Numbered from the whole stretch's first letter, positions 1 to 60,532 are shown. The stretch is DNA of 62,006 nucleotides, filler included, from 8 parts of 8 records of this genome joined end to end with filler, not necessarily neighbours in it, one strand, 5' to 3'. The notes: generated by a model not told the origin, from the sequence alone. Numbers and translations are program-made.

Positions 1-48
1 GGATTTTTACCTGATTGATCTCGTAACGGCACTCCGTCACAGAGGATC

Positions 49-1249
49 ATGGGAGGCTGCGGATCGACCGAGTCGGACACCAAGAAGAAGAAGGCGCTGG
101 ACGGGGCCGAGGAGCAGGGGCAGGCCAAGCAGGACGATCGGGCCCAGGTGAGCAGCCCCGGGCCGGCTGAGCTGTCTGCAGGAGCTTGTCCCGAGGTGGC
201 GGGTGCTGGAGGACACCCAGTACCTGATCACAGACGGGGTGGTGTACCAAGGCGAAGGCTACTTTGCCAAGTCTGAGACAGGCGGGCTCGACCAAGGTGC
301 CCCGAGCCGGGCCGACTTGGGCCGACTGGGCGCCTAGACCACCCCAAGGCCGGCGACGTGCTGACGGGGTTCCGCAAGTACCGCGAGTCCGACGGCGACA
401 CGGTCCGGTGCCACAACAGTCTGCACGTGGCGTGTGCGCACTTGGTGCTATTAATAACGCTGGGCGCTCAGGCTTGGCAGGAGGAGCTGCCGCTCACGTG
501 CCGAGTCCGTTGCACTAAGTCGGCTTTGCTCAAGCACAGTGCGCCCGATACCAGTGCTGCTATCAAAGAAGGGGCCCCGATGGAGCCGGGAGCGGAGGTC
601 ACTGGGCTGATAGTGACCACTCGCTACCACTCGACCACCCGCGACGTGGACACAAAGCAGAATTACCTCAAGGTGCTGCCTGGGGCTCCATACCGTGGCC
701 GATCGAGTGGCAGGTGGAGGACTCGGATGGGTGCTTCTATCTGCCGATCTTTGAGCAGATTGGGTTTGGCCGGACTCAGCAAACCTTGAGCGAGGTTGGC
801 TCTCAGCTGAGGCTGCTGAGTTCATGTTTGCACAGATCGTGAGCGAGGAATTGGAGAAACAGCTCAAAATTTCAAAGGAGAGAGCCCCAACTGCTATGGA
901 CGTCCAGAAGAAGAAGTCAAAGGCGGATGCCCAGGGTGGCTTTGCGAGACTAGGTCAGTGCTTGGGGCCAGCCTGGCAGTGATCTGCGAGTGCAGGTGAC
1001 GCGTTTACCAACGCAGCCAAAAGCGCACGTGGCGATGGCGCAGCGTTCAACAACCAGAACTTTGCACCGGAGAGCTCCAAGAAGCCATGGGACAGAGACG
1101 AGCCCGCCCCAGCAGCCGCCCCAGCAGCCGCCCCAGCAGACTCAGATCCAGGCGCAAAGCTCAAATCCCTCAAGAAGATGCTTGACGATGGCTTGATCAG
1201 CCAAGCTGACTATGACAAGAAGAAGGATGCAATCCTTGCAGAGATGTGA
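49..1249 (+). CDS. Multi-intron gene: acylation-type N-terminus (MGGCGS), SH3-like segment(s), C-terminal SHOCT domain
   Basis: Splicing GT-AG introns (e.g. 148-181) gives a last exon ending AKLKSLKKMLDDGLISQADYDKKKDAILAEM*, a SHOCT-like pattern; middle exons uncertain. Confidence 0.65.
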
Positions 1250-1343
1250 TTCATTCAAATGATTGTTTCAGCCCTCTTGCGAGTACGAGTACGTACAAAC
1301 TTGTGCGGTTGCAATGACTATGTAGTCGTGGCATTAAAGAGCT

Positions 1344-1409
1344 TTGCATTAGCCATGCATTTACCTAACATGCACCTTGCATTAGCCTTGCATTCGCCTT
1401 GCATTATCG
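1344..1409. repeat. Degenerate ~11-bp minisatellite (TTGCATTAGCC-like) in a convergent spacer
   Basis: ttgcattagcc / atgcatttacc / ttgcattagcc / ttgcattcgcc / ttgcattatcg. Confidence 0.6.
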
Positions 1410-1503
1410 AGACCAGAATACCTCGAGCTCGTGCCCGAGAAGCGCATTGTATAAATTGTACTTTGTATTAACTAGTACCATAGCAAGTTTTGTTGTTCAA
1501 CAT

Positions 1504-2913: not shown

Positions 2914-2952
2914 GTGCTGCCGTGGTGGACCGCCGAACCGTTCTACGGAATT

Positions 2953-3195
2953 ATGACGGCAGCCAGATCGGAGAGACTGATGGAGGAGGCCGGCGTGTAC
3001 CGGCTGGAGAATCAGCTGGGGCTCTCGCTCAGCTTGGCGGTGGAGCCGCTGCCCTCCGGCGAGCTGCTGCTCGGCCGCGCGGACCGAGCGCACCCGGGGC
3101 ACCTCCGGCCGAGCGGCGAGCGGCTGGACATGGCGGCTGGCCGGGGCCTCTGGGAGCGGGATACCCGGTCAAGCAAGCTCATTTATTTTCAATAG
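2953..3195 (+). CDS. Small hypothetical protein (~80 aa) divergent from the MFS gene
   Basis: ATG ORF with GC-rich codons ending at an AT-rich spacer; CCGTT at 2938-2942. Confidence 0.4.
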   Translation: MTAARSERLMEEAGVYRLENQLGLSLSLAVEPLPSGELLLGRADRAHPGHLRPSGERLDMAAGRGLWERDTRSSKLIYFQ

Positions 3196-3385: not shown

Positions 3386-3485
3386 NNNNNNNNNNNNNNN
3401 NNNNNNNNNNNNNNNNNNNNNNNNNNNNNTTAATTAATTAANNNNNNNNNNNNNNNNNNNNNNNNNNNNNNNNNNNNNNNNNNNN
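3386..3485. other. Artificial contig linker
   Basis: N-run + TTAATTAATTAA (stops in six frames) + N-run, 100 nt. Confidence 0.98.
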
Positions 3486-3569
3486 CTTACCTCCCCGGCC
3501 TCAGCACCCGGCATTCAGCCATTGAAAATCAACCCATCGGATCCGCCGCCGTTGGAATTATTGAGAAAA

Positions 3570-6500
3570 ATGGGCAAGTGGGGGAAACAGTGGAGTGTGG
3601 TGGCCGGTCTGCTGGCTTGGTGTGTGCTTGCCAGCTCCGAAATGGTGCTGCTTCAAGGTCCACCCCGGCCGACAGGCGGGCCTTCGAGCCTGGGGGCGGC
3701 AGAGGAGCAGCCGGCCGAACGTAGAGGGGACATCAGCGCCGCTCAGCTCCGCTCCGAGGCGGCGGCCGTGTCGGTTCGCAAGGCGCGCCGCGAGCTCCGG
3801 TTGGGGCTGGTCGAGCTGCACGGGGCGTTACGGCTGGCCAAGGGCAACTTCCGGAAGGCCCGGGTGGCGGGTCTCGAGATGGACGAGCATAAGCTTCAGT
3901 TCGACCGCAAACTCAAGCGAGCCGACCGGGCGCGAGATCAGCTCGAGGCGGCCCGTGCAGCGGCGGCCGATGCGAAGGCCAAATTGATCACAGCGGATGG
4001 CAAGCAGGCGATGCTGGTCAGGCGGACCAAGGCGGTGCGGGTCAAGGCGCAAGAGGCTGTCGACGCCACCAAGCTCCATCTAGGCAACAGCTCGAGCCGA
4101 GCCCGAGCCGCGACTAGCGCGGCCGAGGCAGCTGTGCAGCGGGCTACCCTACAGGTAGTAAGAGGCGTCTAGTGGGGACTCAGTCGCTTGCAGGCTACCT
4201 GGGCGGAGAAACAGCGGCTACATGCCAAGATCGCACAAGAGACGGCCGAGATGGAAGCCAGGACAGCCAGCCAGAAGGCAGCCGAAGCGCTGGCCGAGTA
4301 TGGGCTGTCTCAGAATAACGAGCGCGACAATCTTCAGTACTCTATCAGGCAAGCCAGTGAGCAGCTTGAGCACGCCACGACAGCGCGTGCTGACCAGGCG
4401 ACCAAACTGTTTGCAATGTCTCAGGTACGGCCCGCGCACGTTGCTTGTCTGATGGCCTGGGAACAGCGCACCAAGCACTTGAAGGATCTCAAGGCTGCTG
4501 CCACTGCAGGTAATCCAGCTGGCCTGTAGCTAGCTGAAGCTTGAGCTTGCAGAAGTGGACCGGATCACAAAGCTGCAGCAGGGGCGACAGGCCAGCGCCA
4601 CCCAGCTGGTCGCTCGGCTGGCTCGGCAGCTCACGCTGGTGCGGATTATATTGAATGTGCGTCTGATTGGCGGCGCAGGACAATGCGCAACTCAGCAACA
4701 CTGTGAGGGCAGCCACTGTGGCGCAACAGGCAGAACAGAAGCTAAGCGAACAGGAGAAGCGAGCGGCCGACAGGCTTCGACTGGCTCGAGCTAAGCTAGC
4801 TAATAGCCAGGGCAGCCAGATAGGGACGGCCAGGATGCAGAACTCTGTTGAGCTTGAGCGGTACAACCTGAATGTAGCTGAGGCTGACAAGCAGCGGCTC
4901 GCCACTCAGCGCCGGAGCGTCAAGCTAGCGCTGCAGCAGGCCACCAGCGCTCAGATGGCAGCCAAGTCCCAGCTCCGGGCTGCCGAGTCACAGCTGGAGG
5001 CAGCTGAAAAGGCAGTCCAGGCTGCACATGATGCTCGCAAGTCCGGGCTCACTCGAGTAAAGCAGCTGGAGCTGGCGGCGGTGCAGGCCTCGGCGGAAGA
5101 GCATGCAGCGCTAGGCGTACTGGAGAAGGGAGCCGACGAGCTTCGCACAATGAGGCGCAAGCAGATGAGTGAGAAACAGGACAGGCTGCGAGAACAGGAC
5201 AGCCAGGGCAAGGCCGTGATGGCCGCCAGCTCTGCCAAAGCTGCAGCCGCAGCCGCAGCAGCCGTCAACGCAGAGAGCAGCCTGCAGACAGCCAACGCCA
5301 AGCTGCTTGCAGCCCAGAAGCGCCAGGTGCTTGCCAGCAGAGGTGGCGGATGATGGGTGGCGCAGGTAAGCCAGCAAGCCGCCCTGGACGCGGACGCTAA
5401 GAGGGAGAAGCTCAAGCTTGAGCGCGCTGCTGAGAACACCAGCAACCTGGCCAAGGCAGAGGCGGCACATAGGCTCAAACTGAAGCTGGCTGAGCTCAAC
5501 AACCGGATGCAGCAGGCCCGTGAGGGCGCTGGCGAGGCTCGCAACCAGATCAGCGAGGCCGAACAACAGCAGCGGGATGCGGCCAAAGCTACCCGGGCAG
5601 CAGCTGCCAGGGCTGAGCTCGAGCTAAAAAAGGAGCAAGAGCTGGCTCGAAGTGAGCATGAGCGACTCAAGAAGGACTACCAGCGTCAGGTGGGAGCGTT
5701 GCTGGCCAAAGCCGAGAAAGCCGGGGAGGATGCGAGTGCTGGTGGATCGGCTACACAGAAGGCGGTGGCTGCAGCTAAGCTGCAGGTCTATGCTCAACAG
5801 GCACAGGATGAAGCAGCCAAAGCCAAGGAAGCAGTGCACCTGGCAGCACAGTATGCGCAGGTCAGAGAGGAAGCTGCGCAGACCACTGCAGATCAAGCAG
5901 AAGAGGATGCCAAGCAGACCGAGGAACAGGTGCAGATGAGTAAAAATGCTGAGATCCAAGGTGTGAAGCCAATTGCTGCCCTTGCGAGTAACCATGACTG
6001 TGTGGCAGGGGCTCGGATGGCAATCGACACTGCTGGAAAAAGTATCCAAGATGCGCAAGACGCGCAAGCCAAGCTCAGGGCAGATTCAGCTGTTGTGCTC
6101 AAGCAGCAGCTTGCCCGAGTCCAAGACGAGCTGCAGCACCAGACTCAAGAGGCAGCTGTGCAGCAGGCCGAGGCTGCCCACGAAATCGAGCAGGTTGTGA
6201 GAGAGGCAGAAGAGCGACAAAAACTTGCGAGTGATTTAAAAGAGCATGCCGAAGCTGTTCGGAATGAAGCTGAAAAGGAGGCAAGCAAGGCCAAAAGCAG
6301 ATTTGATGCTCAGACGAGGCACAAGCTCAAGACAATCCAGAGGCTGCACGCTAGGGCAATCTTGGTGGAGGAGGAGGCAGCCGAGCAGCTCAAATCCAAA
6401 AAGTCTGATCTGGCCCGTAAGGTTACTTCAGCCAGGAACCTAGCTCTCCGGCAGAAAGACCTGCTCCCTGAGCTAATGGATTTTCTGGTTACTGCAAAGT

Positions 6501-9000
6501 CGGAAAAGCTAGCAGCCACACAGCAAGTTGAACAAGCTAAGATTGAGTTCCAGTTCAGGAAGCAAGCCACAGAAGCTGAACAGGCTGAGATGGCACGGCT
6601 GGACAAGTTGAGTAGTGACGCAGCGCTTGCACATCAGAATGCCCAAGACGCGCTCAAATCGATCCGTAACAATGCCAACGCTGCGATGAAGAAGTCTTCT
6701 GGGGCAAGCACTATTATCAGATTAGAGTTCAAGAGAGCACAGAGCCAGCACAAGGCCGTGGCTGCTAGGCTAGCCAAAGCGAGAGAGGCGCTTGCAGTTG
6801 CTGATTCTGCGCGCAAAGAGGCACAGAAGGTTGTCGAAAAATCGGCTTACACAGCAAAGAAAGCAAAGTCTGCTGCTGATGCCCAGAAGCAGAAATCCAG
6901 GATAAGGATTGCTGGAGCCGAAGACAAGGCGAATCAGGCGACTGAAGCCACTGCACGCGCGCAAGCAGGTCTAGATGAGATGCATGAAAAAGAGAAATCG
7001 CTTAAGCAAGATGAGGCCACAGCAAGAGCACAGCTACAGACAGCGCAGACAGCACTTGCCAAGCATGACTCGACGCTACAAGCAAGGCTCTTGAATAAAC
7101 AGAAGCAGGTAGCCGCTGTCGCTGGGTGAAAGCCACTGATTGCCGGTGTTTGCAGGTGCAAGGAGAAGTTTTAGTTGCCGAGAAGAACTGGAGGGCAGCC
7201 GAAAGCCAAGAAACCGCTGCTGTGGGGCAGACCAGCGAAGCTCTATTGAACCAGCAGAAGACTCAGGCCAACCTGAGGTGGGAAAGAAAGAAGGCGGCAG
7301 ACACTCAGCTGGAAGCAAGGGCAAAGATTAGGAGTGCCAAGCATGATCTTGGGATAGCAGTTCAGGCAGTGAAGAGCGAACAGGTTCGGCTGGCTACTCT
7401 GCAGAGAAATGCAGATGCCACGAAAACACGGCTTGGACATGAGGTGAGACAATTTGTGGATCGTGCTGATGATGTGAGCAGGTGGAGCAAGCTGACAGTA
7501 CTTATCGAAAGCTATCAGCCCAGGCAGACAAGGCCCAGGATCAAGTAGCTAAGGCCAATAGTAAGTGGCTCAAGGCATCAAGCGACGACCGCCAGGCAGA
7601 AGAAGGTGTCAAGGAGGCAAAGGGAAGGGTATCGCAGTATAGAACTGCGTTGCGGTCCCAGGAGGAAGAGGTCGCCGAGGCGCGAGGCCAGCTGCAGGAG
7701 GTTCGTGTCGAATCCGAAGAATTGAGGAAAGAGAAGGCAAGCCTATTGCTGGCCAGCTCAGCTAATGGGCTTTACAGGCCAACAAGCAGGTCAAGGAAGC
7801 CAAACTGGAGGAACATAATGTAGTGCAGGGTCGTGACAAGATGATCAAAGCTGCGAATCATGCAGAGGAAGAATTGCCCAGCATGCTGATGAAGACCAAG
7901 CACCAAAAGCGGGAAGCTCTCAAGACCGCGTATGCCGAGTACAAGGGTAGACTGAGTGGTGTTACAGGCCGGTGTGTAGCCTCTATCCACAGCAAGGCCA
8001 CTGATATGCATGTAGGTCTGATGAGATCAAGGCAATAGCGAGCAAGGGAGTCGAGCTGGCCAGGTCCCGCCAAATTCAAGCCGAGGTGGATCAGGAGAAG
8101 GCCCAACAGGAGGAAGCACGTAGCTCGAAATCAGCCGACCGGCAGATTGGGTTTGACATGCAGAGTTCGCATTCATCAATAGGTCTGGCTAAGCGGCGCA
8201 CCCAAGTTGCTCACAACAAAACAGTGTCACTAAAGCAGGAGGCAATCAAACAACAGGAGCATATGCGACTGGTCGAGAAGGCTGCTGCACAAGTCGCGGG
8301 GGAGAAAGATTCAGCCCAAGCAGAGGAAGGGGCTGCACAGGCTGAGCTCATCGCATCTGAGACTGCGCAAACTAACGCTGTCCAAAACGGTAAGAGGAGC
8401 GTGGTGATGGCACAGCACTACCTGGACCATTCACATGCAGAGTTGGCACACCTCGCAAAACAGCTCCGGTCGTTGGAACCAGGAGTTAGGGCTGCAGCAC
8501 ATGAGGCAACAAAGGCCAAGGAGCATTCAGCACAGGTAGGGCTCACTACAAGCGAGAGTATGCTTAAATTTCGATACGAAAATGATGCAGCTCATGCACG
8601 GGCTGATGAAGCCAACCAGCAGGCGCGGGATGCAGCCAACGCTCGAGAGGAACAGGCTGAGGTGGAATTGGCCGCGGTGCAACAGAAGTCAGAAGTACGA
8701 CTCACTGTTGCACAGAATGCTGCAGCAGAAGCCACCGGCACTGCTCAGGAAGACGCTGATGTGAAGATTCGGGATGCGCAGAATTCCGCGCTGCTTCAGA
8801 TTCAGCGCGCAAAGCAGGAGCAGGAGCGTGCACTGTCTCGTTGGGAACAGGCAAGGAGAAAGGTAGAGGATGCAAAAGCACTCCGAGCTGATGCAAGGAT
8901 GAAGAAGGGTGAGTTGGAGATGGAGGGCAAGAAGCACAGCAATGACATCCTCAGGCTAAAGAAACAGATGGCGGTGGATGAAAAGCAAAGGAAAAGCGAA
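3570..9000 (+). CDS. Giant Ala/Gln/Glu/Lys-rich coiled-coil protein with N-terminal signal/TM segment; 3' end cut by the contig
   Basis: MGKWGKQWSVVAGLLAWCVLASSE start; successive ORFs joined by about 10 introns of 38-48 nt (e.g. GC-AG 7737-7777). Confidence 0.8.
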
Positions 9001-9100
9001 NNNNNNNNNNNNNNNNNNNNNNNNNNNNNNNNNNNNNNNNNNNNTTAATTAATTAANNNNNNNNNNNNNNNNNNNNNNNNNNNNNNNNNNNNNNNNNNNN
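9001..9100. other. Artificial contig linker
   Basis: N/TTAATTAATTAA/N. Confidence 0.98.
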
Positions 9101-9817: not shown

Positions 9818-9918
9818 CCGGGGACGGCTCTCCAGGCACCGAGGCACCGGCACCCACGAGCTGTCCGTTGGCGGGTAACGGCACCGGGCGAGAGCACTCC
9901 ACTTGAGCACAGGGCGAC

Positions 9919-12132: not shown

Positions 12133-12232
12133 CGGCCACGGAGCCCTGCAGTGAATGTCCGTTGGGTTTGGTCAACACGGTCAGCGTGTGGACGGCTGGG
12201 GCACGGTCAAGGCACGGCCAAGATCGGACGAC

Positions 12233-13608
12233 ATGCTGGCCCACCCACCTTCGCTGGTGTGGCTGCTCGCCGCGCTCGGGCTCTGCTGCGGCTACGTGGC
12301 CCTCTGCTGGGACAACAGCCCGGCCAAACCGCGGACGATCCGCGCGGCGCGCCTGTTCGGGTTGGCGCTGCTGCTGCTTGCCGCGCTGTCCCTGGGCGGG
12401 AGCTGGGCATGGCACCGGCGGCAGCTGATACAGGAGCAATGGCAGCTGGCCCGGGCGGTCCCGGAGCTGCTCTCGCAGCTAGACGCCGGCGGGCTTACCG
12501 CCCCGGCTGGCATCTGCCGGGGACAGGCCGGTCTGGGCACGCGGGTCAAGCGGAGGTCACGGGAAGACAGGCGGGCCATTCTGGCAACGCTTACCGACCG
12601 GGTGGCGGTCAAGGAGTTTGCGGCTCTCCGCGGAGTGACGAGCCCGGCGGCGCTGCAGGTTGCGGAGAGCTGCGGATTGTGGGATCGCGGGAGCCAGGCG
12701 TGGGTGCGAGGGAGCTATGTACTGAAAGCTGCTCACCTGTCTGGATGCGTGGTGGTGGTGACCAACGGCAAAGTGGTCAACGACCCAGTCACTCGTGGCA
12801 GCGGCGGGTGCGCCATCGCCAAAGGCGCGGACTGGTGTGCTTGCCGGGGGGCTCATTGTGGGCCGCAGGCACCATGATGACGATCGGACACGTGCAGAGC
12901 TTCTGCCGGGCGGTTACTAGTTTCACACCCAACATGATGGAGGAGATTGCGGCCCGAGCGCTAGGCGGATTAGGTCTGCCAGAGCCATTCAAGAGCCGTC
13001 AGTGGGCGTACGGTGTGCTGTCCCGGGTGCTTGCGTTGATTCAGGGCAGGTATGGTGGCGCCGCGGATGCTCGTAGAGGCCCAGTTGCCGGCACACGCCA
13101 GGTGCGCTGTGCACTGGTCTGGGGTCGCGATCAGAGGGCAGTTGCGACTACAAGTGTTTCACGTTCAGAGGCAAAACAGCCGCTGTGCTCGAAGTATGCA
13201 ACAGATTCAGCTCGAGCAAGACAGATACCTTTTACGATAGGCACGGCCAGAGCATGAACGCCAGCTTCTCGTGGTCGCGCCACGATGCGTCCCAGCCACG
13301 GCTCGGCAGTAGGCTGGTGGAGCAGGTGCGGATGACGACAAGTGTCTTATTAACTGATTGGTAAGGTGGTCGGGGCTTGCGACAAGCTGGCGGCCGGGCT
13401 GGACCATGCGAGAGTTGATCTGTTTTACGATGGGGTCGCGGATCAAGTCTATCTTGGCGAGATGACTATGTACCATCTAGGAGGCGAGAGCGACAGCAGT
13501 GCGTGCCAACGGGGGCGGCTGGCTGATTGGATGGCAGGCACCTACACGCCGGCATCACTCGATGGGTGGTTTGGCGACTTGTGGTGTCGGGACATGCCCG
13601 TGCACTAG
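12233..13608 (+). CDS. Membrane-anchored TupA-like ATP-grasp protein, 4 introns
   Basis: Spliced motifs DRVAVKEF, YVLKAAHLSG, QWAYGMVAPRMLVE, DYKCFTFRGK, HARVDLFY, VYLGEMT; two N-terminal hydrophobic helices. Confidence 0.8.
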
Positions 13609-13692
13609 CTGGTGCTTTAGTAAACAATTATTTATGAGTTTAATTAAGTCCAAATTTGTCCTTTACTCGTACGTACAAGGGCACAGAACGCA

Positions 13693-14339: not shown

Positions 14340-14419
14340 CGCCCCAAGACGCCCACAGCTCGATTGCCGTTGTAAAAACTCCTTGTGCGCTGAGAAGCCA
14401 CAAGCCACTGCCACAAGAC

Positions 14420-15357
14420 ATGCTGGCCCTCAAGCTCGTCGGTTTTCTGCTGATCGCCGGGGCCGCCGCCCAGTCGGTCAAGAGCTGCGGCAAACCGGGC
14501 GACGTCCTCTCGTGCCTCCTCCCCCGGGGTGCGCGATGACTCGGCGGCCAGGAATGCCACCTTCTCAGTTTCGCCCGACCCGATCCAGAAAGGCTCCCCG
14601 CTCACGATTACTGTCAGCGGCAACCTTGGTGCCGCGGTGACCGCCGGCACGCTCAACGTGGACCTGAGCATCAAGGCGCTCGGGATCATCAACGAGCCGA
14701 TCAAGAAGACAATCCCCTTCACGCTGGCCCCAGGACTCCTGGCCGGAGCCACCAAGGTCCGCCCGGCCCCCGCGGTTGGGCCGAGCGGGAGGGCAGGCCG
14801 TGATTGGGCCCTTCACCCCGCCGACCGTCCCGGGTTCGTTGGAAGTGAGCGGCACCGTGACTGGGACCGACTCTTCTGGCAAGGAGGTCTTCTGCGTAGC
14901 TCTGGACATCAACGTTGGGGCCGCCGAGGAGAATCCGATGGCGCAAGTGATCCCGATGCAGTCGACCGATGCCCCGGTGGTCACCAACTGTGGCACCGCG
15001 GCCGACCATCTCAAGAATGTCTCCACCTCCTCGTCGGGCGGTGTCGGGTCGCTCACGGGCACTCTCGATGAGTCGATCAGTTCTGGCTCTGTCCCCGTCG
15101 ACCTCACTGTCAAGGTGCTGTTCATCTCGATCCCAATCAAGATGACCGTCCCATTCACCATCTCCCCCGCAGTCCCAGCCGGCCCGATCAAGGCCACCGC
15201 TGGCCCTGTAAGCAGCATCTCGAGCATGGCGGCCTACTGGCTCAACAGATGGGCGCCAGCTGTGCAGTCTGGAATCTCGGTCAAGATCAACGGGGACGTC
15301 AAGGTGGACGACGGGCAGGGCCAGGAGGTGGCCTGCGTATCGATCAGCACCCCATGA
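14420..15357 (+). CDS. Secreted protein with two tandem ML (NPC2-like lipid-binding) domains
   Basis: Signal peptide; SCG..., VSPDPIQKGSPLTITVSG, GKEVFCV; second unit TNCG...GQEVACV; tiny introns. Confidence 0.8.
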
Positions 15358-15586: not shown

Positions 15587-16028
15587 TCAGATGACCACAT
15601 TGCCCATATTCTTCTTCTTGCGCTTCTCCGCCGCCTGCCCCCGATCGCCCTACCCTCTCGCCGCCCGCACCTGCGCCCTGCGGTGCTCCTTGAGCTTAGC
15701 CATGAACTCAGGCTGCTGGTCCAGCGCCTTCTCAATCTTCAACAACCGCTCCGGCTTCATCCGATCCGCCTTCCGCCCCTTCGGCGGCTTGGGCGGCGCT
15801 GACGGCTTCTGCGGCCGGGCCTCAGCCAGCGCTGCCCCCGGGTGACCCCCCCCCGTGCGTCTGGGCCGGACCTGCGTCCAGTGCCTCCCCGCCGCCCGCC
15901 CGGCGGATCCGGGCGAGCATGAGCGCCGAGAACTCGGGCTTGCGCCACTTGCCGTGCGGCTTGGTGGGCAGCAGCGCGCCGGGCAGCTTGCTCACCGCCC
16001 GGGCCAGCCACTCCGCCCGCCCGGCCAT
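15587..16028 (-). CDS. Mitochondrial ribosomal protein mL59 (MRPL25-like), 2 introns
   Basis: GKWRKPEFSALMLARIRR, then PKGRKADRMKPERLLKIEKALDQQPEFMAKLK after splicing. Confidence 0.7.
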
Positions 16029-16098
16029 TGCCAACCTCTCCCCTGCCGTGGGGCCAGCGCCCGATTGGCGACGGATTGCAACGGAAAATTGTGAGAGC

Positions 16099-16254: not shown

Positions 16255-16281
16255 GCACAATGAACACGCTTTAAATCGATC

Positions 16282-16381
16282 NNNNNNNNNNNNNNNNNNN
16301 NNNNNNNNNNNNNNNNNNNNNNNNNTTAATTAATTAANNNNNNNNNNNNNNNNNNNNNNNNNNNNNNNNNNNNNNNNNNNN
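16282..16381. other. Artificial contig linker
   Basis: N/TTAATTAATTAA/N. Confidence 0.98.
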
Positions 16382-18311: not shown

Positions 18312-18756
18312 TTTGTGTTTTGTGCTCGGATTTGTGGAATCGACCTTGGTCCCACAATTTTGTTTTATGGGAAGTGGTATACTCCCACTCTCCGCGTGTG
18401 ACGAGCCTGATTAATGAAATCCGGCTCACTTGGCGAGGGCACGATTATGATGCGTGTGTTCGAATGCTTGAGACCGTAAGACCGATGCGCCCGTCTCTTT
18501 GAGGGCTTGGCGTTCCAATGCTGGGTCCTCTCCCCGATTGGCCTACATCCTTGAACGAAGAAATAGCAATTAATCGAGACGATCGGGAAAACGATGAAGT
18601 CGAACAATTTACAACTGTTAATACGAGTACTATCGAACTACTCTAAGCTCACCATACTCATTATTTATGGTGAATTGTACTCGCGAAAGTCCGAAGCTTG
18701 CATGCATGTTTGTATGCTATTTGTATGCAAGCCCCGTGGTCGCTCGATCAGCATTG

Positions 18757-19482: not shown

Positions 19483-19655
19483 CCGGCGGTGAAGGAGGCG
19501 GCCGTCAGTGCGGCGAAGAGCAGCAGTAACGGCAAGGCGGCGGCTGGCAACGGGGCGGCCAAGGACGGCGGGGCCGAAGGAAGGAGGTGGTGCTCGGAGG
19601 GCGGCCAACGGACTCGCAACCGCTCCACCACACTCCGTCTACCAGTGATCGCGAG

Positions 19656-21269
19656 ATGGCACCGATCGCGCTGAGGGGCGACGAGCAGGAGGAAGACGAC
19701 GAGTTCGACGAGGATGAGCTGCTGCCGGAGCCGCCGCCGCCGGTTGAGTGGCTGGGTCACCCGCCGGGGCTGGTGGTGCTGTTCACTGCAGAGATGTGGG
19801 AGCGGATGAGCTACTATGGGATGCGGGCGCTGCTGGTGCTCTACCTGAACGACGTGCTGCTCCAGCCGGAGACGATTGGCTCGGTGTACGGGCTCGGGCT
19901 GTTCGCCGGGCCTCATGGGATGTACGGGGACCCAGGGGACGACCCGGCAAAGCGGCAGGCGATTTCGAGCAAGCTTTACGGGTTGTACACTGGTCTGGTT
20001 TACCTGACCCCGCTGGGCGGCGGGCTGCTGGCCGACCGGGGGCTCGGCCAGCGGCGGGCAGTGCTGATCGGTGGTGGGCTGATGGCGTTCGGGCATGTGG
20101 CCATGGCATTCACCGAATGGTTCATGGTGGCCCTGGGGCTGCTGATCGCCGGGAATGGGCTGTTCAAGCCCAACATCAGCACCCAGGTGGGCCGGCTGTA
20201 CGAGGAGGGCGATCCGCGCAGGGACCAGGCCTTTTCGATCTTCTACGCCGGGATCAACCTCGGTGCCATGCTCTCCCCGCTGGTCTGCGGCACACTCGGC
20301 GAGCAAGTGGGGTATGAGGCCGGCTTCGCCGCAGCCGGAGTCGGGATGTGCATAGGGCTTGCCGTGTTCTGCGCTGGTCAGCGCTGGCTTCCTCCCGAGA
20401 AGGACGCTCAGGAGCAAAATTCTGAAGAGCCACCGGTTGGCATGTGCGCGACTCTTTCTGCCCACAAGCCGCAGGTGGGCGCAATCCTGATCGTGAGCCT
20501 GTTTGCGATCATGTTTTGGGCGGTGTATGAGCAGCAAGGCAACACGATTCAGCTGTTCGCGTCACAGCAAACCGACATGATGCTGCTGCCAGGGATCAAA
20601 CTCCCGGCTACTTGGATTCAGTCGCTCAACCCTCTGTTCATTCTCATTCTCATCCCGCTCATCTCCAAGTTCTGGGGATGGCAGGCCGAGCGCGGCACGG
20701 AGCCGAGTTCGGTCGCCAAAATGGCCATAGGCTCAGTGGTCAGTGCGAGTTCATACCTGTTCCTAGTGGTTGCAGCCAGCTTGGCTGGATCCGGTCGGTG
20801 TAGCATGTGGTGGCTCGTACTGGCCATTCTGGTGCTCACTCTCGGAGAAATATACGCCTCGCCTGTAGGGCTCAGCTTTGTGAGCCAGGCCTCCCCGCCT
20901 GGCGTGGCCTCGTTCCTAATGGGCGGCTGGTTCCTGTGTACCGGAGTGGGCGGATACATGGCAGGCGAGATAGGGGCTCTGTACAGCGCCATGTCAAAGG
21001 CCAGCTTTTTCTTGCTCGTGGCCATTATTGGCTGCGTCAACGGTACGCTTTTGGCGCTTGCAGTTGGCAGAATCAACAGATTGCTCGACTCTGGATCTCA
21101 CGATGCACACGATGGTGCTCAGCACACGCACTCGGCGCTCGACGACTTTGGCACAGTGATAGAGCTAGTGTCCGACGAGTCTAATGGCTCACGCCGGAAC
21201 ACCCCCCGAAATAGCCCTGCAACCAAGACCGATTCTATGTCATTTCCCGGACCGCAATTTAGTCTCTGA
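19656..21269 (+). CDS. POT/PTR proton-dependent oligopeptide transporter, intronless
   Basis: EMWERMSYYGMR (ExxER), GNGLFKPNIS, FYAGINLG, EQQG, QSLNP. Confidence 0.95.
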   Translation: MAPIALRGDEQEEDDEFDEDELLPEPPPPVEWLGHPPGLVVLFTAEMWERMSYYGMRALLVLYLNDVLLQPETIGSVYGLGLFAGPHGMYGDPGDDPAKRQAISSKLYGLYTGLVYLTPLGGGLLADRGLGQRRAVLIGGGLMAFGHVAMAFTEWFMVALGLLIAGNGLFKPNISTQVGRLYEEGDPRRDQAFSIFYAGINLGAMLSPLVCGTLGEQVGYEAGFAAAGVGMCIGLAVFCAGQRWLPPEKDAQEQNSEEPPVGMCATLSAHKPQVGAILIVSLFAIMFWAVYEQQGNTIQLFASQQTDMMLLPGIKLPATWIQSLNPLFILILIPLISKFWGWQAERGTEPSSVAKMAIGSVVSASSYLFLVVAASLAGSGRCSMWWLVLAILVLTLGEIYASPVGLSFVSQASPPGVASFLMGGWFLCTGVGGYMAGEIGALYSAMSKASFFLLVAIIGCVNGTLLALAVGRINRLLDSGSHDAHDGAQHTHSALDDFGTVIELVSDESNGSRRNTPRNSPATKTDSMSFPGPQFSL

Positions 21270-21400
21270 TTAAAAGCTTTGAAGAATTCATTGAAAAGCA
21301 TGTTACTTGATAGTACATGATTGTGTAACGTATTCCACAAACAAAACTATTACACTGTATCGGTTATTGATGCATGCTGTCAGGTGAGGCTATCCTCTTA

Positions 21401-25259: not shown

Positions 25260-25359
25260 NNNNNNNNNNNNNNNNNNNNNNNNNNNNNNNNNNNNNNNNN
25301 NNNTTAATTAATTAANNNNNNNNNNNNNNNNNNNNNNNNNNNNNNNNNNNNNNNNNNNN
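25260..25359. other. Artificial contig linker
   Basis: N/TTAATTAATTAA/N. Confidence 0.98.
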
Positions 25360-26197: not shown

Positions 26198-26454
26198 TGC
26201 GCCCGATGCACCTCATGATTGTGTTATTTGTATATGATAAGAATTTGATCGGTACAACCCGGGAACACGCTGGGAAGTGTATTGTACTAGTATTGTACTA
26301 TTGTACTAGGTAAATATTGATAAGCTAAGTACTGTACTATTGGGTCAGCAGCCTCTTAGTAGCAACAATACCCAACGTTGTATTTAAAAATACCGTCGGA
26401 AGAAGGCTGTTGCCACTACTATTTCGCGATGCAACACGTGCTGAGCGGCCGCAG

Positions 26455-29400: not shown

Positions 29401-30809
29401 TTGGAATTGGGGCAGATGCCACGCCAGATCTAGATTCGGTGGCCCAGGCGGCGGAAGACAAGGAGCGGGAGGATTGGATGCGCGCGTTTACTGACTTTTG
29501 CGCCCCGCTGTCGGCAGTTGTATGCTGCCGGGTCAGTCCAAAGCAGAAGGCGGAGGTGACGAAACTGGTCAAGAAAAACCTGGGCAAGTGCACACTTGGG
29601 ATCGGTGATGGGGCAAATGACGTTGGGATGATCAAGGAGGCGCACGTGGGTGTGGGCGTGCAGGGAGTGGAGGGGACTCAGGCGGTCAATAATTCGGACT
29701 TTTCGGTGTGCGAGTTCCAGCATTTGGAAAACTTGTTACTCACCCACGGCCGGTGGACATACGATAGGATGTCTCGGGTCGTGGGCTATTTTTTCTATAA
29801 GAATGTGGGCTTTGCACTGATCTCGTTCTGGTGGCAAATTTACTGCGGCTGGTCCGGGCAGCTCTTCTTCGAGGAGTGGACCCAGGTGGGCTACAACCTT
29901 TTCTTCACTTCGCTGCCTGTCTTTGCGCTCGGCTGGTTCGAAGTCGACACTCGATTGGCACGTTTCTGTCCATCACTCTATATGCCTGGCCAGCGTGGCG
30001 ATGGCCTGAATACCAAGGCAGCCATGCCTAGCTGCTGGTGCTGATGGGCAAATCAGGTGTTCCTCATGTGGGTAGGCGAAGGGCTTTATGTCTCGCTTGT
30101 GCTTTTCTTCGGATGGCTTGCTCTAGCAGGTATGGCATGCGCTCTGATGTGAGCCAGTCACTGCGTTGGGTAGGATGCTATGAGAGCCCCACGCCACTCT
30201 CTGACAACCCTGGGCACATGCCGGGCATATGGGACCTATCAACCCTGCTCTACACGATCGTAATCATCACAATGACAATGCGGATTGTGATGGAAACTTC
30301 CAATTTCACAGTGCGGCCCTGCCACCACACTGATTCAATTGTGGGTTCAGATGATCCATTACCTATTCTATTGGGGCTCTATAGCGGCCTGGGTGGCTTG
30401 GCTTCTCATCCAAACTTGTATCGGGGCCGAGGGCGGCTTCTCTTACATAAGCGGCGGCTTCATCGCTGCCAATGCCAACGGAGCATCAATCTACATGGTT
30501 CTGTCTAACATGGGCAAGGGAGGATTCATGTGGGTCTCGATGTGGCTACTGCCTGCCGTGTGCTTGTTCCCAGCATACTGTGTAAAGGTGATCGCCCGCA
30601 TAGAAGGAGTTTAGACCGGTGGGCAGATCTACTACGTTATTCGGCCAACTGAGCTTGAGCTGATTAGAAACCCTGAGTCATGGGACACGCTGGTGGCCCA
30701 AGAGTTGGTGAAGGAGGAGGACTTGCCAAGTATGAAAGAACTCTGGGAGGTTGACCAGAAGAATAAGTTTGGCGATTGTTGTCGTGATACAGGCATCTGC
30801 TGTTGCTGA
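26455..30809 (+). CDS. P4-ATPase phospholipid flippase, about 11 introns
   Basis: NLWEQ|FQRLAN, DGETNLK, PISLYV, SDKTGTLT, SPDDGAL, CK|GAD, TAIEDKLQ, LTGDK, CRVSP, GDGAND, FFYKN. Confidence 0.96.
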
Positions 30810-31252
30810 ATACTGCGTACGTACCACTTGGTTGCATCAACATGAGACACGATCGCGAGCAATACGTGGGTATCATGAGTACCACGTCACCAGGACCATA
30901 ATTATGCATGCCGTAATTAATCTTGGTCAACGATGCCTCTCACCTCTAAATGACTGTACATATAATTATAAATTAATTAATTCACACATACTCATTTCTA
31001 CCGACGCAGATGACTTTACAATCCAAAAAGAAATGGTTAAATTAAGTACAAGCGATTGCAAGTAACGTTCGGTTTGAACGAAATTATAATAGTTTTGATA
31101 ATTAATTAATGCACTGATTTCATGACTACATGTACAGTATCATGCATGATTAATTTTATTGTGCACGAAGTACTTGATTAGTACATGATTAGTTATTACA
31201 ATCATGTAGTACACTCATGATTGCGCAACCTGTCTAGTTTTAAAGGTTCTAG

Positions 31253-34087: not shown

Positions 34088-34196
34088 CCCTCAAAGCAGG
34101 TCTGCATGCATGCGATTTGTCCGATTTGTCCGCTTCCGTTGTCTTGTACACCCCCAGACTACTCCCTGAAATTTCACTGAAGCCTGGAACTGGGCT

Positions 34197-34296
34197 NNNN
34201 NNNNNNNNNNNNNNNNNNNNNNNNNNNNNNNNNNNNNNNNTTAATTAATTAANNNNNNNNNNNNNNNNNNNNNNNNNNNNNNNNNNNNNNNNNNNN
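34197..34296. other. Artificial contig linker
   Basis: N/TTAATTAATTAA/N. Confidence 0.98.
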
Positions 34297-39960: not shown

Positions 39961-40595
39961 CACACGTCGACGAGGGCTGTGGCGGGAACGAGGCCGTACG
40001 GCTCACGGCTGTACCGGCAACGGTAACGTATTTACCTACTGGCGCGTTGCGCGCGTCGTTGGCCTGGACTATAGCCTGCAGCAAAGTTTACAACTTGAGG
40101 CTACTAGCCTCCAGGTTCCATGCAATAGCTTTTGCCATACAAGATCTTGCGCGACTTGGTGCTGTCGCTTGCCAATACCATCGAGTGCCATGGCGTGTCT
40201 GCCGCGTCAGAGAGGCCTAATAACACGATCTTTCAGTGATATAATCATAACACGATCATCATTGTGCACCGACTCAGGGATCGAGGGAAACCCGGGCGGG
40301 GCGTCAGAACTCTTGGAAGGCGCCGGCTGATCGGAGTACGTACGTAGCCGCTTCACCTGTTCACCATGCATGGTTCAGTTTTGCGGTTTTGCCTCATCAG
40401 CTGATCTGAGCCACTCGGAGCTGTATTAATAATAGTTTAATTTCCGACGTTCTTGTGGTTGGCATGCACAAAGACGACTGCTCAACTTCTTCACAACCGC
40501 CCATCTTGTCTCAATGGCGGCCTGTCTCCGCTGACCGTGGATCCTTGCCGGGCTCGTCGGACTCTTCTCCTCGTAGCCGCGAAGCGGGGGAGTTC

Positions 40596-42018: not shown

Positions 42019-42468
42019 ATGGAGCAAAGATGGCCCCTAAGCCCCTGGGCAACGCCACACCTTGTACAATGGAGCTAACTGTGCGCACATGCACCGATGT
42101 CAATAGGGCCCCTCACGGCTCCTTAATGGCTCCTGACATCATGTGACATTCAATAGAACATGTAGACAAACATTCATTTTAATTTTAACCGTATGGAAGG
42201 GAACCTATGAATTAAATACATGATCGTATGGGATTAGTTAGCACGTAGAAAAAAAATACTAAGTTGTACTAAATTGTGTACTTGTCTCTAAAGGCCGCCC
42301 ATTGAGCCGGCACTACACTGATTTTGAACGATCATTCGTCGATGTACAATACAAACGCGATCGATCAGAGAGCAGTTGCGGCTCGGATGGAGTTTGAGCA
42401 CACGACCGGGACAGACTTGAGGTACCACACCAGCGTCGGATCGACAGCTCTCAGCTTGTCTAATGATC

Positions 42469-44132: not shown

Positions 44133-44232
44133 NNNNNNNNNNNNNNNNNNNNNNNNNNNNNNNNNNNNNNNNNNNNTTAATTAATTAANNNNNNNNNNNN
44201 NNNNNNNNNNNNNNNNNNNNNNNNNNNNNNNN
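44133..44232. other. Artificial contig linker
   Basis: N/TTAATTAATTAA/N. Confidence 0.98.
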
Positions 44233-44727: not shown

Positions 44728-45174
44728 CGCTGCTCGAATGTTGCTCGAATGTTTCGCTGCTCCTCCTCCAGTGGTTGGAGGCTGGCGTACCCGCGAGCAT
44801 CGTTTCCATTTTAGGGAACCGTTTACGGTAGAGTGATGATCATTCTTAAGTCATTGGGACTGTCGACGGCTGCGACGCGAGTTTGTGGCGGAGTGCATGA
44901 AGCTGGACAGCGATGCCGGGCTTGCTACGTATTCGGTTCTTCCTTTAGAGCCGGTAAGAGCCGGTACCAGTAATTATAACACCGGCCAAGTGTTCGGGTT
45001 GCGGGGTCGTCAGCGAACCGGCCACTGTGTGGTTGCCCAGCTGCTTGGTTTATGGTTGATTGGTTAATAAACCTATCTGCCATAAACCGGGCGCAGAGAG
45101 CGTGCTGTCCAGCTAGAGTGGGACAAGCAATACAATCTTCCATGCACATGACAACACTTTATTAATTTTGTGTG

Positions 45175-45705: not shown

Positions 45706-45931
45706 CTAAATGCCTTTCTGCACATGCACGGGTCTTTGGTGGCCGGTGGTGTTGACCTCGTCAGTGGCGTAGATAGGGGTGGCTCTTTGTGGCCAGGAAA
45801 TGCATCATGCGTGTCTAGAGTAGACCTACCACTCTTATGGGCACCACGCGAGTAGCCCATGTGCGTTAGACGGTTGGGACACACGTTTTAATTAAATTAA
45901 AACGGCGAGGACAGACACCGGGAGTGCGGGC

Positions 45932-54082: not shown

Positions 54083-54531
54083 TGCTGGGTTGATAACGGA
54101 CCGCGGAGATCGCAAGACCCTCAGTACCGCACGATCTTGGCCCCAATTCTAAAGCCTTAGCATCGGCCGTAGTATAATTCTAGTAGATCTACCCAAATGG
54201 CCCATCCGGCTGCTGGACGTACGGTACATACACATCGAAGCGAAATCACACTGATTGCATTTGGGTCGAGCAAAGCGCTATTATTTAAAATAAGTGCTTT
54301 GCGGTAGTGCTCGAGACTTCCCGTGAGTAATTAGATTAGCCAACTGATCAATATGGCAGTACTTGTTATGGCGGATCTTAGGAGCTAGGTAGTGTAACCT
54401 AGGACGACTTAGTCTACGCGCTATGCAGGGCCGCCTTGTCCTTGGCGGCTTGGCCCGCGACGCTCAGTTTAGCTCGTAACGGAACGGGTGCCCGGTTCAG
54501 GTTGCAACCTGAGCATTGCACGCCGACGCCG

Positions 54532-55995: not shown

Positions 55996-56095
55996 NNNNN
56001 NNNNNNNNNNNNNNNNNNNNNNNNNNNNNNNNNNNNNNNTTAATTAATTAANNNNNNNNNNNNNNNNNNNNNNNNNNNNNNNNNNNNNNNNNNNN
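55996..56095. other. Artificial contig linker
   Basis: N/TTAATTAATTAA/N. Confidence 0.98.
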
Positions 56096-57750: not shown

Positions 57751-57787
57751 TCAATATTGGTGGAACGGATTACGAAGATTTTCAAGC
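57751..57787. promoter_or_regulatory. 37-bp bidirectional promoter containing AACGG
   Basis: Head-to-head ATGs at 57750 (-) and 57788 (+); AACGG at 57764-57768. Confidence 0.65.
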
Positions 57788-58440
57788 ATGGAGGGGTCGA
57801 CTCCGGAGGTCTCGTCTCTGGAGGAGGCTGTGCGGCGGGCGCAGGATCGGTTCGAGACGGTGCCCCTAGCGCTCGAGCTAGGGAGGTCGCTCCGGCAGTT
57901 CCCCGAGATCTGGATCCCGACCCACAAGCGATACTTGAAGACCCGCGACGTGATGGCCGGACTGGAGCGGTGCTACGAGTGCTGGCAGCAGGGGCTCGCC
58001 CGTCCGTACGCGCTGCAGGCTGGGGAGAGGTGCCTGCCGGGCCGTGCCATCTGAGCCCGGGCTGTCGCAGCTTCGAGGTCAACTTGCGCTGGCTGCTCAG
58101 TACGGCGGCTGCGTCGAGTTGGTTTACGGAGCAACAGTACGAGCAGATAGAGGGATGGATCGAGGAGGTGGTCGGGCTGCGCGAAGAGCGCCGGCTCCGC
58201 TCACAGGCCGAGAGCGAGGGCGCAATGTCCCGGGCGATCCCGCCGATGGCCAAGCTGGATGCGGGGATCGACGCGGCTGTGGCCGAGGCCGTGGGGCTAC
58301 TCCGGCACAGACTAGACGACGTGCTGGGAATCGAACGGCGGCCGGTGGTGCCGGTGCCACCGGTGCCGCTGGTTGCAGAGCACGTGCACAAGCACTTGCG
58401 GGTGGTGCCACCTGCGGTGGTGAGACTGAGCCAGCCGTGA
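57788..58440 (+). CDS. Hypothetical protein, one intron
   Basis: MEGSTPEV... joins in frame through a GT-AG intron near 58030-58070 to FEVNLRWLL...LSQP*. Confidence 0.65.
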
Positions 58441-58847
58441 CCAGCCTGACTGCAAAGAATCGAGGAGCGGCAGACAACCTGTTTCCCCAGACACGGGCAG
58501 CGGAAGGGGCCGCAGTTGTGTGTTGTACATCTGCATAAGCTAATTATAAGCGTAAATGGTACTCGGGTTGTTCGAGGTCCCAAACATCAAGACTACCACA
58601 TTGTCACGGTGTATCATCAATCAAGTGATGAATCAATATTAATGTTACATTAGTGTTAGTTCGTACTGATCTCGTAACCTTTAGACTCATCGAGCACTAT
58701 CTAGAGATTTGTGTAAAACGATAACGTGATGTGCCGGTATCAAGTACGCTTCTCAGTTACTTCTCAGTACGTACGGTACTCCGGTACTCTGGCTTCACGG
58801 AGTTAGCTTTACTCTTTGGTGCCTCTTTGATTAATCCTTTAATTAAC

Positions 58848-60482
58848 TTAAGTACGAGCCTCCAAGGTCGCGTTGTTTATAATTGTGGAGGGCTTCACCC
58901 CGTGCGCCACCACATCAAATTCTGCGTCCGCCGCGCCTGTGAACAGACCGGCTCCAGTCCCTTGTCCACCAAACATGAACGACACCGGGGTCAGTCCGGT
59001 GAAGATCTCGACCACATCTCCATCAACAACCACCCTGAACTGCGCTTGTGCTCTCAAACCAGCAGCGCTAGAGTCTTCCGACTCGAGCCGAGCGGCCACA
59101 GGAACCGAGACCGGCGGCTTGTTCGGGTCTTGCTGGATCGTGAGCTGATGGATTGGGCGCCGGGCCGAGGCGTCGCCGGTCAGCTGGACTGTGAGCACTA
59201 GCCCCCGATCCTCCGGGCTAGTAGCCTTCAGCCAGAGCCCGCAGCCAGTGCTGCCAGCTGCCGCACGCACCGTCACCTTGATGTCCAGAGCGGACACCAG
59301 CGGGCCAATCCCTTCTAGAGATTGCGACCCATTGGCAGCCACCGATAGATTCGCAACAATCACTGGTCGAGCGGCCCAGCGCCGTGCGAGTGCGGGTGTG
59401 GGTTGGAAGTTGAGGCTCAGGTCGTCTTGGTTCAGCGTGACGGATCTCGGGAGACTCTGCACCCCGCCGCCTAGATCGGCCATGATGATCCTTCCACCCA
59501 TCTCCGGAGGCCCCAGCACCGTCTGGCTCGCGTAGTATCCAGACCCATAATCAGCCGCCTGCAGCGCTGATTTCGGCACAAACTCCCCGTCCGGGCCGAG
59601 CTTTCCGATTAAATAAACCACCCCGGCGTCTCGGGAGAGGCCGCCGCCGTTTCGCTCCGGTCGGCTCCACATAAGCACCCACCAGCTGTCCGCTGCCGCC
59701 TGCCCAAAGTCCACGTTCTCACTGGTCACATTCAGACTGCCCGGGCCGATCGGGAAGAAGTCGCCGCACTCGGCCCGGTTCATCGGCTGGTTATGGACAT
59801 ACAACGGGCCTAGGTATCGCCAGCGGGCAAAGTCAGTCGAGCTGTACAGCAGAAAAGCCGGGGTGGAGCTCGGCAGCCGCGGGTTGCCAACCGAGGAGGA
59901 GACCAGCGCCATGATCGCACTGGCGTTGTGGTAAGCCACCACGTTCCCGATCAGCCCGAACGGGGGAGGGATGTGATTCCCGGGGGTGCCGACCCAGCCA
60001 GTCTCGCCCACCGAGTGGTTGCCTTCGATCCCGTGGCTCACCTGGCTCCAACGGACCAACCGGCTGTCCACCCGCGAGTCCACCACCGCGGCGTAGTTGT
60101 TGGTGGTCTCCCAGCCAACCGTTGTGTCTCCGTTGACCAGGCTGCCCACGTGACTCGCGTTGATCCGGATAGTGCACCCAGTGCCCGCGGCGCTGTAAAG
60201 GTCCAGACGGGAAACGGCACAGGGCCCGAACGGCGCAGCGTATGGCGCGAAGTCGGCCACTAGGTCCGTTGAGGCCGCGTGCCCCCACCCGTCCGGAGCC
60301 TGCCCGCGCTGGCAATCGGCAGGGCTGAACTGAGGGAAGATGTGGAAGCGCCGGCTGGGCGCGTCCCAGTATAGCTGCGGGTCGCCCATCCGGCCCGGGG
60401 CGAGTCCGTTGCCGGGCCCGAAGTGGAAGCTCGGAGCGGCACCGCACCCGAGCAGCTGCACCACCACCAGCCACCAGTACAT
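58848..60482 (-). CDS. Secreted GH32 (invertase/fructosidase-like) glycoside hydrolase, intronless
   Basis: Signal peptide MYWWLVVVQLLG; RMGDPQ, FHIFPQFSP, WGHAASTDL, AECGDFF, DYGSGYYASQT, QSLPR, VEIF. Confidence 0.85.
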   Translation of the reverse strand: MYWWLVVVQLLGCGAAPSFHFGPGNGLAPGRMGDPQLYWDAPSRRFHIFPQFSPADCQRGQAPDGWGHAASTDLVADFAPYAAPFGPCAVSRLDLYSAAGTGCTIRINASHVGSLVNGDTTVGWETTNNYAAVVDSRVDSRLVRWSQVSHGIEGNHSVGETGWVGTPGNHIPPPFGLIGNVVAYHNASAIMALVSSSVGNPRLPSSTPAFLLYSSTDFARWRYLGPLYVHNQPMNRAECGDFFPIGPGSLNVTSENVDFGQAAADSWWVLMWSRPERNGGGLSRDAGVVYLIGKLGPDGEFVPKSALQAADYGSGYYASQTVLGPPEMGGRIIMADLGGGVQSLPRSVTLNQDDLSLNFQPTPALARRWAARPVIVANLSVAANGSQSLEGIGPLVSALDIKVTVRAAAGSTGCGLWLKATSPEDRGLVLTVQLTGDASARRPIHQLTIQQDPNKPPVSVPVAARLESEDSSAAGLRAQAQFRVVVDGDVVEIFTGLTPVSFMFGGQGTGAGLFTGAADAEFDVVAHGVKPSTIINNATLEART

Positions 60483-60532
60483 GTGCCGACCCGACCCACA
60501 CGGCATAAAAACGGCTGTTACGGCATATCTCG

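Follow-up and report, generated by a model that had tools for sequence, protein, structure and literature searches.

Promoter recognition is almost unknown outside of animals, fungi, plants, and a few parasites. The subject here is the word AACGG (CCGTT on the opposite strand), which lies upstream of the start codons of most genes in a 62,006-base stretch of DNA ("the window") from an uncultured marine protist, and which can be set beside several described systems. The c-Myb recognition element is YAAC[G/T]G, and AACGG is the core of the plant MSA element, which is read by 3R-Myb proteins and marks G2/M genes only; for Myb R2R3 domains, the textbook optimum is AACGG with a C or T in front of it. 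Reb1 is a Myb-like general regulatory factor of yeast promoters. For Trichomonas vaginalis, a core promoter element named Motif 3 (M3) and a Myb-like protein that binds it, M3BP, were reportedly described by Smith et al. in 2011. Excerpts of two sources present M3 as an element that resembles a Myb recognition site, is bound by the Myb-like M3BP, and can direct the choice of the start site (PMC4693282; bioRxiv 10.1101/603894). According to the excerpt of the second source, the initiator (Inr) is the dominant Trichomonas element, present at ~75% of genes, and M3 serves genes that do not have an Inr (bioRxiv 10.1101/603894). An excerpt on Drosophila OVO, a C2H2 zinc finger protein, places its TAACNGT sites near transcription starts, where the protein is thought to aid the basal machinery (PMC11410370). 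Within the one open-access library that was searched, no account of an AACGG-type general promoter element turned up for protists or Telonemia.

The window consists of eight contigs joined by seven artificial linkers and is given as one strand. Within it, AACGG is very probably a genuine promoter-proximal element that acts at the level of DNA.

Concentration of AACGG before start codons

The window as a whole contains 105 copies of AACGG/CCGTT, compared with 91.7 ± 8.8 in 100 shuffles, six of which reached 105. Since there is no window-wide excess, only a concentration at gene starts is in question. Such a concentration had been proposed by the initial annotation, which placed the word within about 10-100 bp upstream of the ATG of functionally unrelated genes and in either orientation. 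To begin with starts called by a dynamic-programming gene finder that scores codons and is never given the motif, 18 of 32 "motif-blind" starts have AACGG/CCGTT at most 100 bp upstream, and ~5 would be expected from 105 sites in 61.4 kb. Among the 14 starts that lack it, several are clearly pieces from the inside of genes that were called in parts. In the sequences upstream of these starts, AACGG ranks first of 512 strand-collapsed 5-mers, with 18 of its 105 copies in 4.5% of the sequence (3.8-fold, p=1.2e-6). The next ranks are taken by words that overlap it (ACGGC, ACGGA, and TAACG), and ACGG is the first of 136 4-mers (p=1.9e-9).

A curated set of 28 starts, which form 19 gene-start regions of 2017 bp in total, was compiled by taking the first ATG of the first coding exon, together with a signal peptide (12233), an actin-type N-terminus (44727), and RNA-supported models (14420 and 16028). 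These starts were fixed after the motif had already been seen, and the gene models are weak at 5 of the 28 (2954, 12132, 16099, 40596, and 45725). At least one motif is present in 16 of the 19 regions, which hold 20 copies altogether, a 6.0-fold enrichment. When the regions are placed at random (2000 times), 2.51 ± 1.48 contain the motif (maximum 8), and when the same regions are shuffled with their dinucleotides preserved (2000 times), 4.13 ± 1.73 do so (maximum 10). Start regions hold 9.9 copies of the motif per kb, compared with 1.52 for exons, 1.06 for introns, and 1.05 for the remaining intergenic DNA. A profile in 40-bp bins, from -400 to +400 relative to the ATG, has its peak at -80 to -1, with ~12 copies per kb, and every other bin holds 0-3. 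Altogether, a copy lies no more than 125 bp away from 24 of the 28 curated starts. Thus, within the window the proposed tie to gene starts stands, as the element is more frequent upstream of the starts than the background with either set (18/32 motif-blind, 16/19 curated).

Could this pattern arise by chance, from selection by the reader of the sequence, or from the composition of GC- and CpG-rich spacers? The window-wide count is ordinary (105 versus 92 ± 9), a 5-mer that occurs every ~590 bp is not rare, and the curated starts were not chosen blindly. However, the motif-blind list still ranks AACGG first of 512, the dinucleotide shuffles (4.1 ± 1.7 regions) never exceed 10 regions in 2000 trials when 16 are observed, and other CpG-containing neighbor words are not enriched. 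Together, the motif-blind ranking, the shuffled controls, and the profile of base substitutions given below exclude these explanations, and the probability left to them is negligible.

All of the AACGG/CCGTT positions reported by the initial annotation are exact matches, each 11-91 nt from the nearest upstream-facing ATG (ORF, open reading frame):

25-29, + strand: AACGG, sense, 19 nt before ATG 49 (+; MGxxxS-type start); the contig edge is 24 nt upstream
2938-2942, - strand: AACGG, sense for the MFS transporter (ATG 2913, 24 nt), in the 40-bp gap (2914-2953) to a weak small + ORF (ATG 2954)
3549-3553, - strand: AACGG, antisense, 16 nt before ATG 3570 (+); the contig starts at 3486, so a divergent neighbor is possible
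9865-9881, both strands: divergent pair, CCGTT 9865 and AACGG 9877, in the 101-bp head-to-head spacer 9818-9918; each is sense for the nearer gene (ATG 9817, -; ATG 9919, +)
12159-12163, - strand: single motif in the 100-bp spacer 12133-12232, sense for a weak - ORF (ATG 12132, 26 nt); the signal-peptide start 12233 (+) follows after 69 nt
14367-14371, - strand: single motif in the 79-bp spacer 14341-14419, sense for GNAT (ATG 14340, 26 nt) and 48 nt before ATG 14420 (+)
16080-16084, + strand: single motif in the 70-bp spacer 16029-16098, sense for a small + ORF (ATG 16099, 14 nt) and 51 nt from ATG 16028 (-)
19528-19611, + strand: three AACGG (19528, 19549, and 19607) in the 173-bp spacer between 2OG oxygenase (ATG 19482, -) and POT transporter (ATG 19656, +)
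34136-34140, - strand: AACGG, sense, 48 nt before ATG 34087 of an EF-hand gene that has a 38-nt predicted intron after its first exon
40019-40023, + strand: AACGG, antisense for the PH/LamG/EF-hand gene (ATG 39960, -) and 58 nt upstream of its ATG, beside three further ACGG/CCGT copies
44819-44823, - strand: AACGG, sense, 91 nt before ATG 44727 of the actin-related protein gene
45901-45905, + strand: AACGG, sense for the gene at ATG 45932 (+, 26 nt), with an A/T-rich patch immediately upstream
54095-54099, + strand: AACGG, antisense, 12 nt upstream of ATG 54082 (-)
54478-54487, + strand: tandem AACGGAACGG, sense for DAHP synthase (ATG 54532, 44-49 nt)
57764-57768, + strand: single motif in the 37-bp spacer 57751-57787 between PCIF1 (ATG 57750, -) and a + gene (ATG 57788)
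60510-60514, + strand: single AACGG in the 50-bp spacer 60483-60532 between GH32 (ATG 60482 or 60506, -) and a + gene (ATG 60533)

The start at 44727 is set by a 40-nt intron that restores the actin-type N-terminus. In the spacer 12133-12232, five further ACGG/CCGT copies lie beside AACGG, and the AACGG at 60510 is flanked by two ACGGC copies at distances of 11 and 10 bp.

The genes that follow the motif encode an MFS transporter, GNAT, 2OG oxygenase, POT transporter, EF-hand and PH-domain proteins, an actin-related protein, DAHP synthase, PCIF1, and GH32, so the claim that the element is independent of gene function also holds. One might instead suppose that the motif marks a single regulon, in the way that the plant MSA element, with an identical core, marks cell-cycle genes. 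Yet it precedes 24 of the 28 curated starts, which belong to transporters, metabolic enzymes, and signalling and cytoskeletal proteins. This spread of functions excludes a regulon-specific role, which is scarcely credible for this element.

Sequence and arrangement of the element

Within start regions, any single-base change at positions 2-5 of AACGG abolishes the enrichment (0-2.7-fold, none significant); for example, ACCGG is at 1.3-fold, AACTG at 0.6-fold, AACAG at 0.5-fold, AACGA at 1.1-fold, and AAAGG at 0. Position 1 is tolerant, with CACGG at 2.5-fold, GACGG at 2.6-fold, and TACGG at 3.2-fold. Since the enrichment is lost with any change at positions 2-5, a specific word, not an effect of composition, is responsible. 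With AACGG masked, first place among the 5-mers still goes to a word with this core, ACGGC (14 of 110, p=4.4e-6). The base before ACGG is A in 20 of 46 promoter copies and in 85 of 368 copies elsewhere, while the base after it is G in 3 of 46 and 117 of 368, respectively. C or T precedes AACGG in 14 of the 20 promoter copies (T in 5). The flanks of the 20 copies are otherwise unrelated and therefore do not indicate a repeat family. Weaker N-ACGG copies cluster around AACGG (12133-12232, 60483-60532, 39961-40080, and 19483-19655). Gaps of 10-12 bp separate adjacent ACGG copies in 5 of 24 cases in start regions, including four same-strand pairs at exactly 11, versus 5 of 87 elsewhere; ACGG copies may thus be spaced by one helical turn, with too few cases to settle it.

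The motif occurs in either orientation, as the initial annotation had stated: relative to the gene nearest to each copy, 13 are sense and 7 antisense. Sense copies tend to lie nearer to the ATG, with 9 sense and 5 antisense copies at -40 to -1 and 5 and 8, respectively, at -80 to -41. Only an antisense copy is present at three single-gene promoters (3570, 39960, and 54082). The use of both orientations, together with these antisense-only promoters, is more in keeping with a site recognized in double-stranded DNA than with a signal in RNA.

All eight of the short head-to-head (ATG-to-ATG) spacers, with lengths of 40, 101, 100, 79, 70, 173, 37, and 50 bp, carry the motif. Exactly one copy is found in six of them, the divergent pair (9865/9877) in another, and three copies in the last. 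A longer, 449-bp spacer (54083-54531) has a separate copy at either end, and the 37-bp spacer between PCIF1 and its neighbor (57751-57787) has almost no room for anything besides the motif. In five of these spacers (57751-57787, 2914-2953, 60483-60532, 16029-16098, and 14341-14419), the start codons of the two genes are only 37-79 bp apart. With ATG-to-ATG distances this short, either the leaders are extremely short or the divergent transcripts overlap.

Other sequences are also seen in start regions. The next independent enriched word is TAAAA/TTTTA (8 of 40, 6.3-fold, p=3e-5). An A/T patch abuts AACGG on its upstream side in three promoters (45901, 60510, and, on the - strand, 14367), and a TATA-like A/T patch is present in the P4-ATPase promoter, which has no motif (26375-26395), and in the long 54083-54531 spacer (54275-54295).

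RNA from this organism is represented in four public marine metatranscriptome runs by assembled contigs that match the third contig of the window at 95-99% identity; none of them spans a motif or covers the 5' end of a gene with a sense-oriented motif, which counts neither for nor against the element. Since these data are assembled contigs, transcription starts are unreadable from them. The + gene at 14420 is confirmed by a 985-base RNA contig that starts at 14411 and from which two 40-nt GT..AG introns have been spliced out, and the - gene at 16028 by RNA contigs that reach 16062 and likewise skip two introns. This shows that the organism is transcribed in the sea and that two gene models beside motif-bearing spacers are right. 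The introns confirmed by spliced contigs are 36-40 nt long and very GC-rich, with GT..CAG ends:

14512-14551: RNA-confirmed intron
14757-14796: RNA-confirmed intron
15635-15670: RNA-confirmed intron
15832-15871: RNA-confirmed intron

A clear branch-point word was sought in these four introns, and none was found.

The introns also bear on the idea that the motif works in RNA, as a signal in the 5' leader or as the branch point of tiny introns in the 5' untranslated region. One P4-ATPase intron in the window does end in ...CTAACGGCTACTCAG. However, introns as a class are not enriched for the motif (3 copies in 2.8 kb, 1.06 per kb), the motif is absent from all four RNA-confirmed introns, and 7 of the 20 promoter copies are antisense to the closest gene. 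Furthermore, a YAG is found 5-25 nt downstream of only 5 of the 16 sense promoter copies, compared with 51% of random positions. A role in RNA is therefore very improbable. An intron branch point or an introner-type repeat was considered as the identity of the motif and rejected, given the lack of enrichment in introns, a YAG frequency below the random rate, and the unrelated flanks.

Source DNA and gene content

The linkers that join the eight contigs are as follows, each consisting of 44 N, a 12-base all-frame stop word, and 44 N:

3386-3485: artificial linker
9001-9100: artificial linker
16282-16381: artificial linker
25260-25359: artificial linker
34197-34296: artificial linker
44133-44232: artificial linker
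55996-56095: artificial linker

Because the window is made of joined contigs, some genes and promoters beside linkers are cut, and neighbors across a linker are not real neighbors. The DNA is eukaryotic, with a GC content of ~58% (73% at third codon positions), ~1 gene per 2.3 kb, and tiny introns. Matches to Pfam include an MFS transporter, GNAT, an FCP1-like phosphatase, a 2OG oxygenase, a POT transporter, an SHPRH-type helicase, and a P4-ATPase, as well as EF-hand proteins, a PH/LamG protein, a DnaJ protein, DAHP synthase, PCIF1, and a GH32 enzyme. A protein search with the DAHP synthase returns two close relatives, at 82% and 77%, and bacteria and a labyrinthulomycete that score alike; it points to no one lineage. 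When metagenomes are scanned with this protein, 80 loci are obtained at 52-62% identity, which is the range of bacterial matches, and these were not used. The same type of scan with the 549-aa transporter as the query found no relative, and a search of the other scanned genomes for stretches that look like the window DNA also found none.

Two regions have an unusual composition. Directly downstream of the EF-hand exon (33468-34040), a 651-codon open frame at 31495-33450 (-) has atypical codon usage, a strong AT skew, and no Pfam match; this frame may belong to the EF-hand gene as a low-complexity tail, connected through an intron. The region 3570-9000 (+) contains one long gene or several, with ~8 predicted tiny introns, and runs off the end of its contig. 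It has a strong excess of A over T (AT skew up to 0.32) and large exons without a Pfam match.

Spacers on the 3' side of genes (convergent or tandem) are AT-rich (13600-13690, 21250-21400, 26200-26340, 30800-31250, 42100-42290, and 58540-58850). They are rich in TTAATTAA-like runs, TGTA/TACA, and GTAC, in contrast to the GC-rich start spacers, and from their sequence these AT-rich words are candidate 3'-end signals; the count of AATTAA-type words in 3' spacers is inflated by the artificial linkers.

Proposed role, candidate readers, and known systems

The element consists of a strict ACGG (positions 2-5) with a preferred A at the first position, a preferred C or T before it, and usually C or A, rarely G, after it. 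Most genes have one copy, sometimes two or three, at a distance of 11-91 nt before their start codon, and a single copy often occupies the 37-101 bp gap common to two back-to-back genes. A sequence-specific DNA-binding protein would then recognize AACGG and recruit or position the RNA polymerase II machinery for one or both of the flanking genes; alternatively, the bound protein would keep the tiny spacer nucleosome-free for one or both of them. Judging from the DNA sequence, the mechanism as a whole (a DNA element plus a bound promoter factor) is likely. A stricter version, in which AACGG is a core promoter code that sets the start of transcription, is doubtful. For a strict core element, orientation is mixed (13 sense, 7 antisense) and the spacing to the ATG, which serves as a proxy for the start site, is loose. 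A more ambitious version is likewise tentative: one factor with an ACGG core (optimum YAACGG[A/C]) may provide the main promoter recognition of this lineage, such that a single 5-8 bp site drives two divergent genes from spacers down to 37 bp and TATA and Inr are largely replaced, and the word may also have been copied into tiny intron families.

A different function for the bound factor is that of a general regulatory or boundary factor, similar to yeast Reb1, which would keep spacers nucleosome-free and not set the start. The range of gaps to the ATG (11-91 nt), the use of both orientations, the sharing of one copy by two divergent genes, and the presence of homotypic ACGG clusters are all compatible with such a function. 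However, spacers of 37-50 bp (57751-57787 and 60483-60532) leave hardly any space for a separate core promoter, and sense copies 14-26 nt from the ATG in 8 genes are compatible with a role close to the start site. Overall, a purely boundary-type factor is unlikely, though it deserves consideration.

Several observations weigh against a promoter element read by a Myb factor. The whole analysis covers 62 kb of DNA, and the spacing between the motif and the ATG is loose (11-91 nt). Exons contain 73 occurrences of AACGG/CCGTT; therefore, the 5-letter core alone cannot define promoters. Extension of the core to YAACGG[A/C], which matches 12 of the 20 promoter copies, gives 7.9-fold enrichment versus 6.0-fold for the core, and so the flanks add little. 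With respect to the Myb part, AACTG is unenriched and the first A can be replaced (N-ACGG at 2.5-3.2-fold), unlike what the YAAC[G/T]G rule predicts. In addition, the excerpt on OVO has a zinc finger protein reading the same core, which is therefore not diagnostic of Myb. Finally, three of the 19 start regions, or four when the weak start at 45725 is included, do not contain AACGG. The three were already named as exceptions by the initial annotation, and indeed none has the motif within 120 bp:

18312-18431, - strand: upstream region of the FCP1-like phosphatase (ATG 18311); no AACGG and no ACGG, AT-richer (GC 0.46)
26335-26454, + strand: upstream region of the P4-ATPase (ATG 26455); no AACGG, a TATA-like A/T patch between AACGT and CCGTC
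40476-40595, + strand: region upstream of the weakly supported start 40596; no AACGG

Which protein would read the element? By its sequence, the best single candidate is a Myb/SANT-type protein, to which we would give about an even chance. In a comparison with the Myb element, YAACGG accounts for 14 of the 20 promoter copies (6.7-fold), while YAACTG is found in start regions in 0 of 51 occurrences and AACTG in 2 of 107 (0.6-fold). A Pfam search for a Myb domain among the 95 ORFs of the window with at least 150 aa found none. It is also possible, though on the improbable side, that the element is real and is read by a non-Myb protein, such as an OVO-like C2H2 zinc finger or a factor specific to the lineage. 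The C or T that precedes AACGG in 14 of 20 copies, the optimum for Myb R2R3 domains and the MSA element, argues against this, and the flanks typical of OVO are lacking, since TAACGGT occurs 0 times in the window. On the other side, AACTG and YAACTG, which a Myb protein permits, are unenriched at the counts just given, and the N-ACGG variants still reach 2.5-3.2-fold; in the excerpted text, moreover, OVO binds TAACNGT/TAACGG near transcription starts with no fixed spacing (PMC11410370).

If the promoter role of AACGG is correct, the lineage would offer a minimal model promoter, with one short word before ~85% of gene-start regions and bidirectional promoters among the shortest seen. As a natural system of very small size, it would allow the positioning of RNA polymerase II to be studied, and it would aid in fixing gene starts in metagenome-assembled genomes of this lineage. 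AACGG would also join Trichomonas M3 as a second, independent case in which a word resembling a Myb site serves as a general signal for promoters, and the search for the factor that reads it would be directly testable among the DNA-binding proteins of the assembly.

How, then, does the element compare with the known systems? It shares with the c-Myb and MSA elements the AACGG core and, in 14 of the 20 promoter copies, the C or T before it; unlike them, AACTG is unenriched here and the first A is replaceable, and whereas MSA is limited to G2/M genes, the genes here are unrelated. As in yeast, where the sites of one factor such as Reb1 occur in very many unrelated promoters, including divergent ones, the word is found before diverse genes, but the sequence of the site differs. 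The OVO sites, as far as the excerpt goes, have the same core word, are enriched at or near gene starts, and have inexact spacing. However, OVO serves a germline gene set, needs a flanking T...T (TAACGGT being absent here), and belongs to a metazoan family. By analogy, and within what the excerpts describe, the closest described case appears to be Trichomonas M3. Both are short, Myb-site-like elements near the gene starts of a protist with very short leaders, with a gap of 11-91 nt in the present case. They differ in that the organisms are probably unrelated and in that AACGG is the dominant word here, present in 16 of the 19 start regions.

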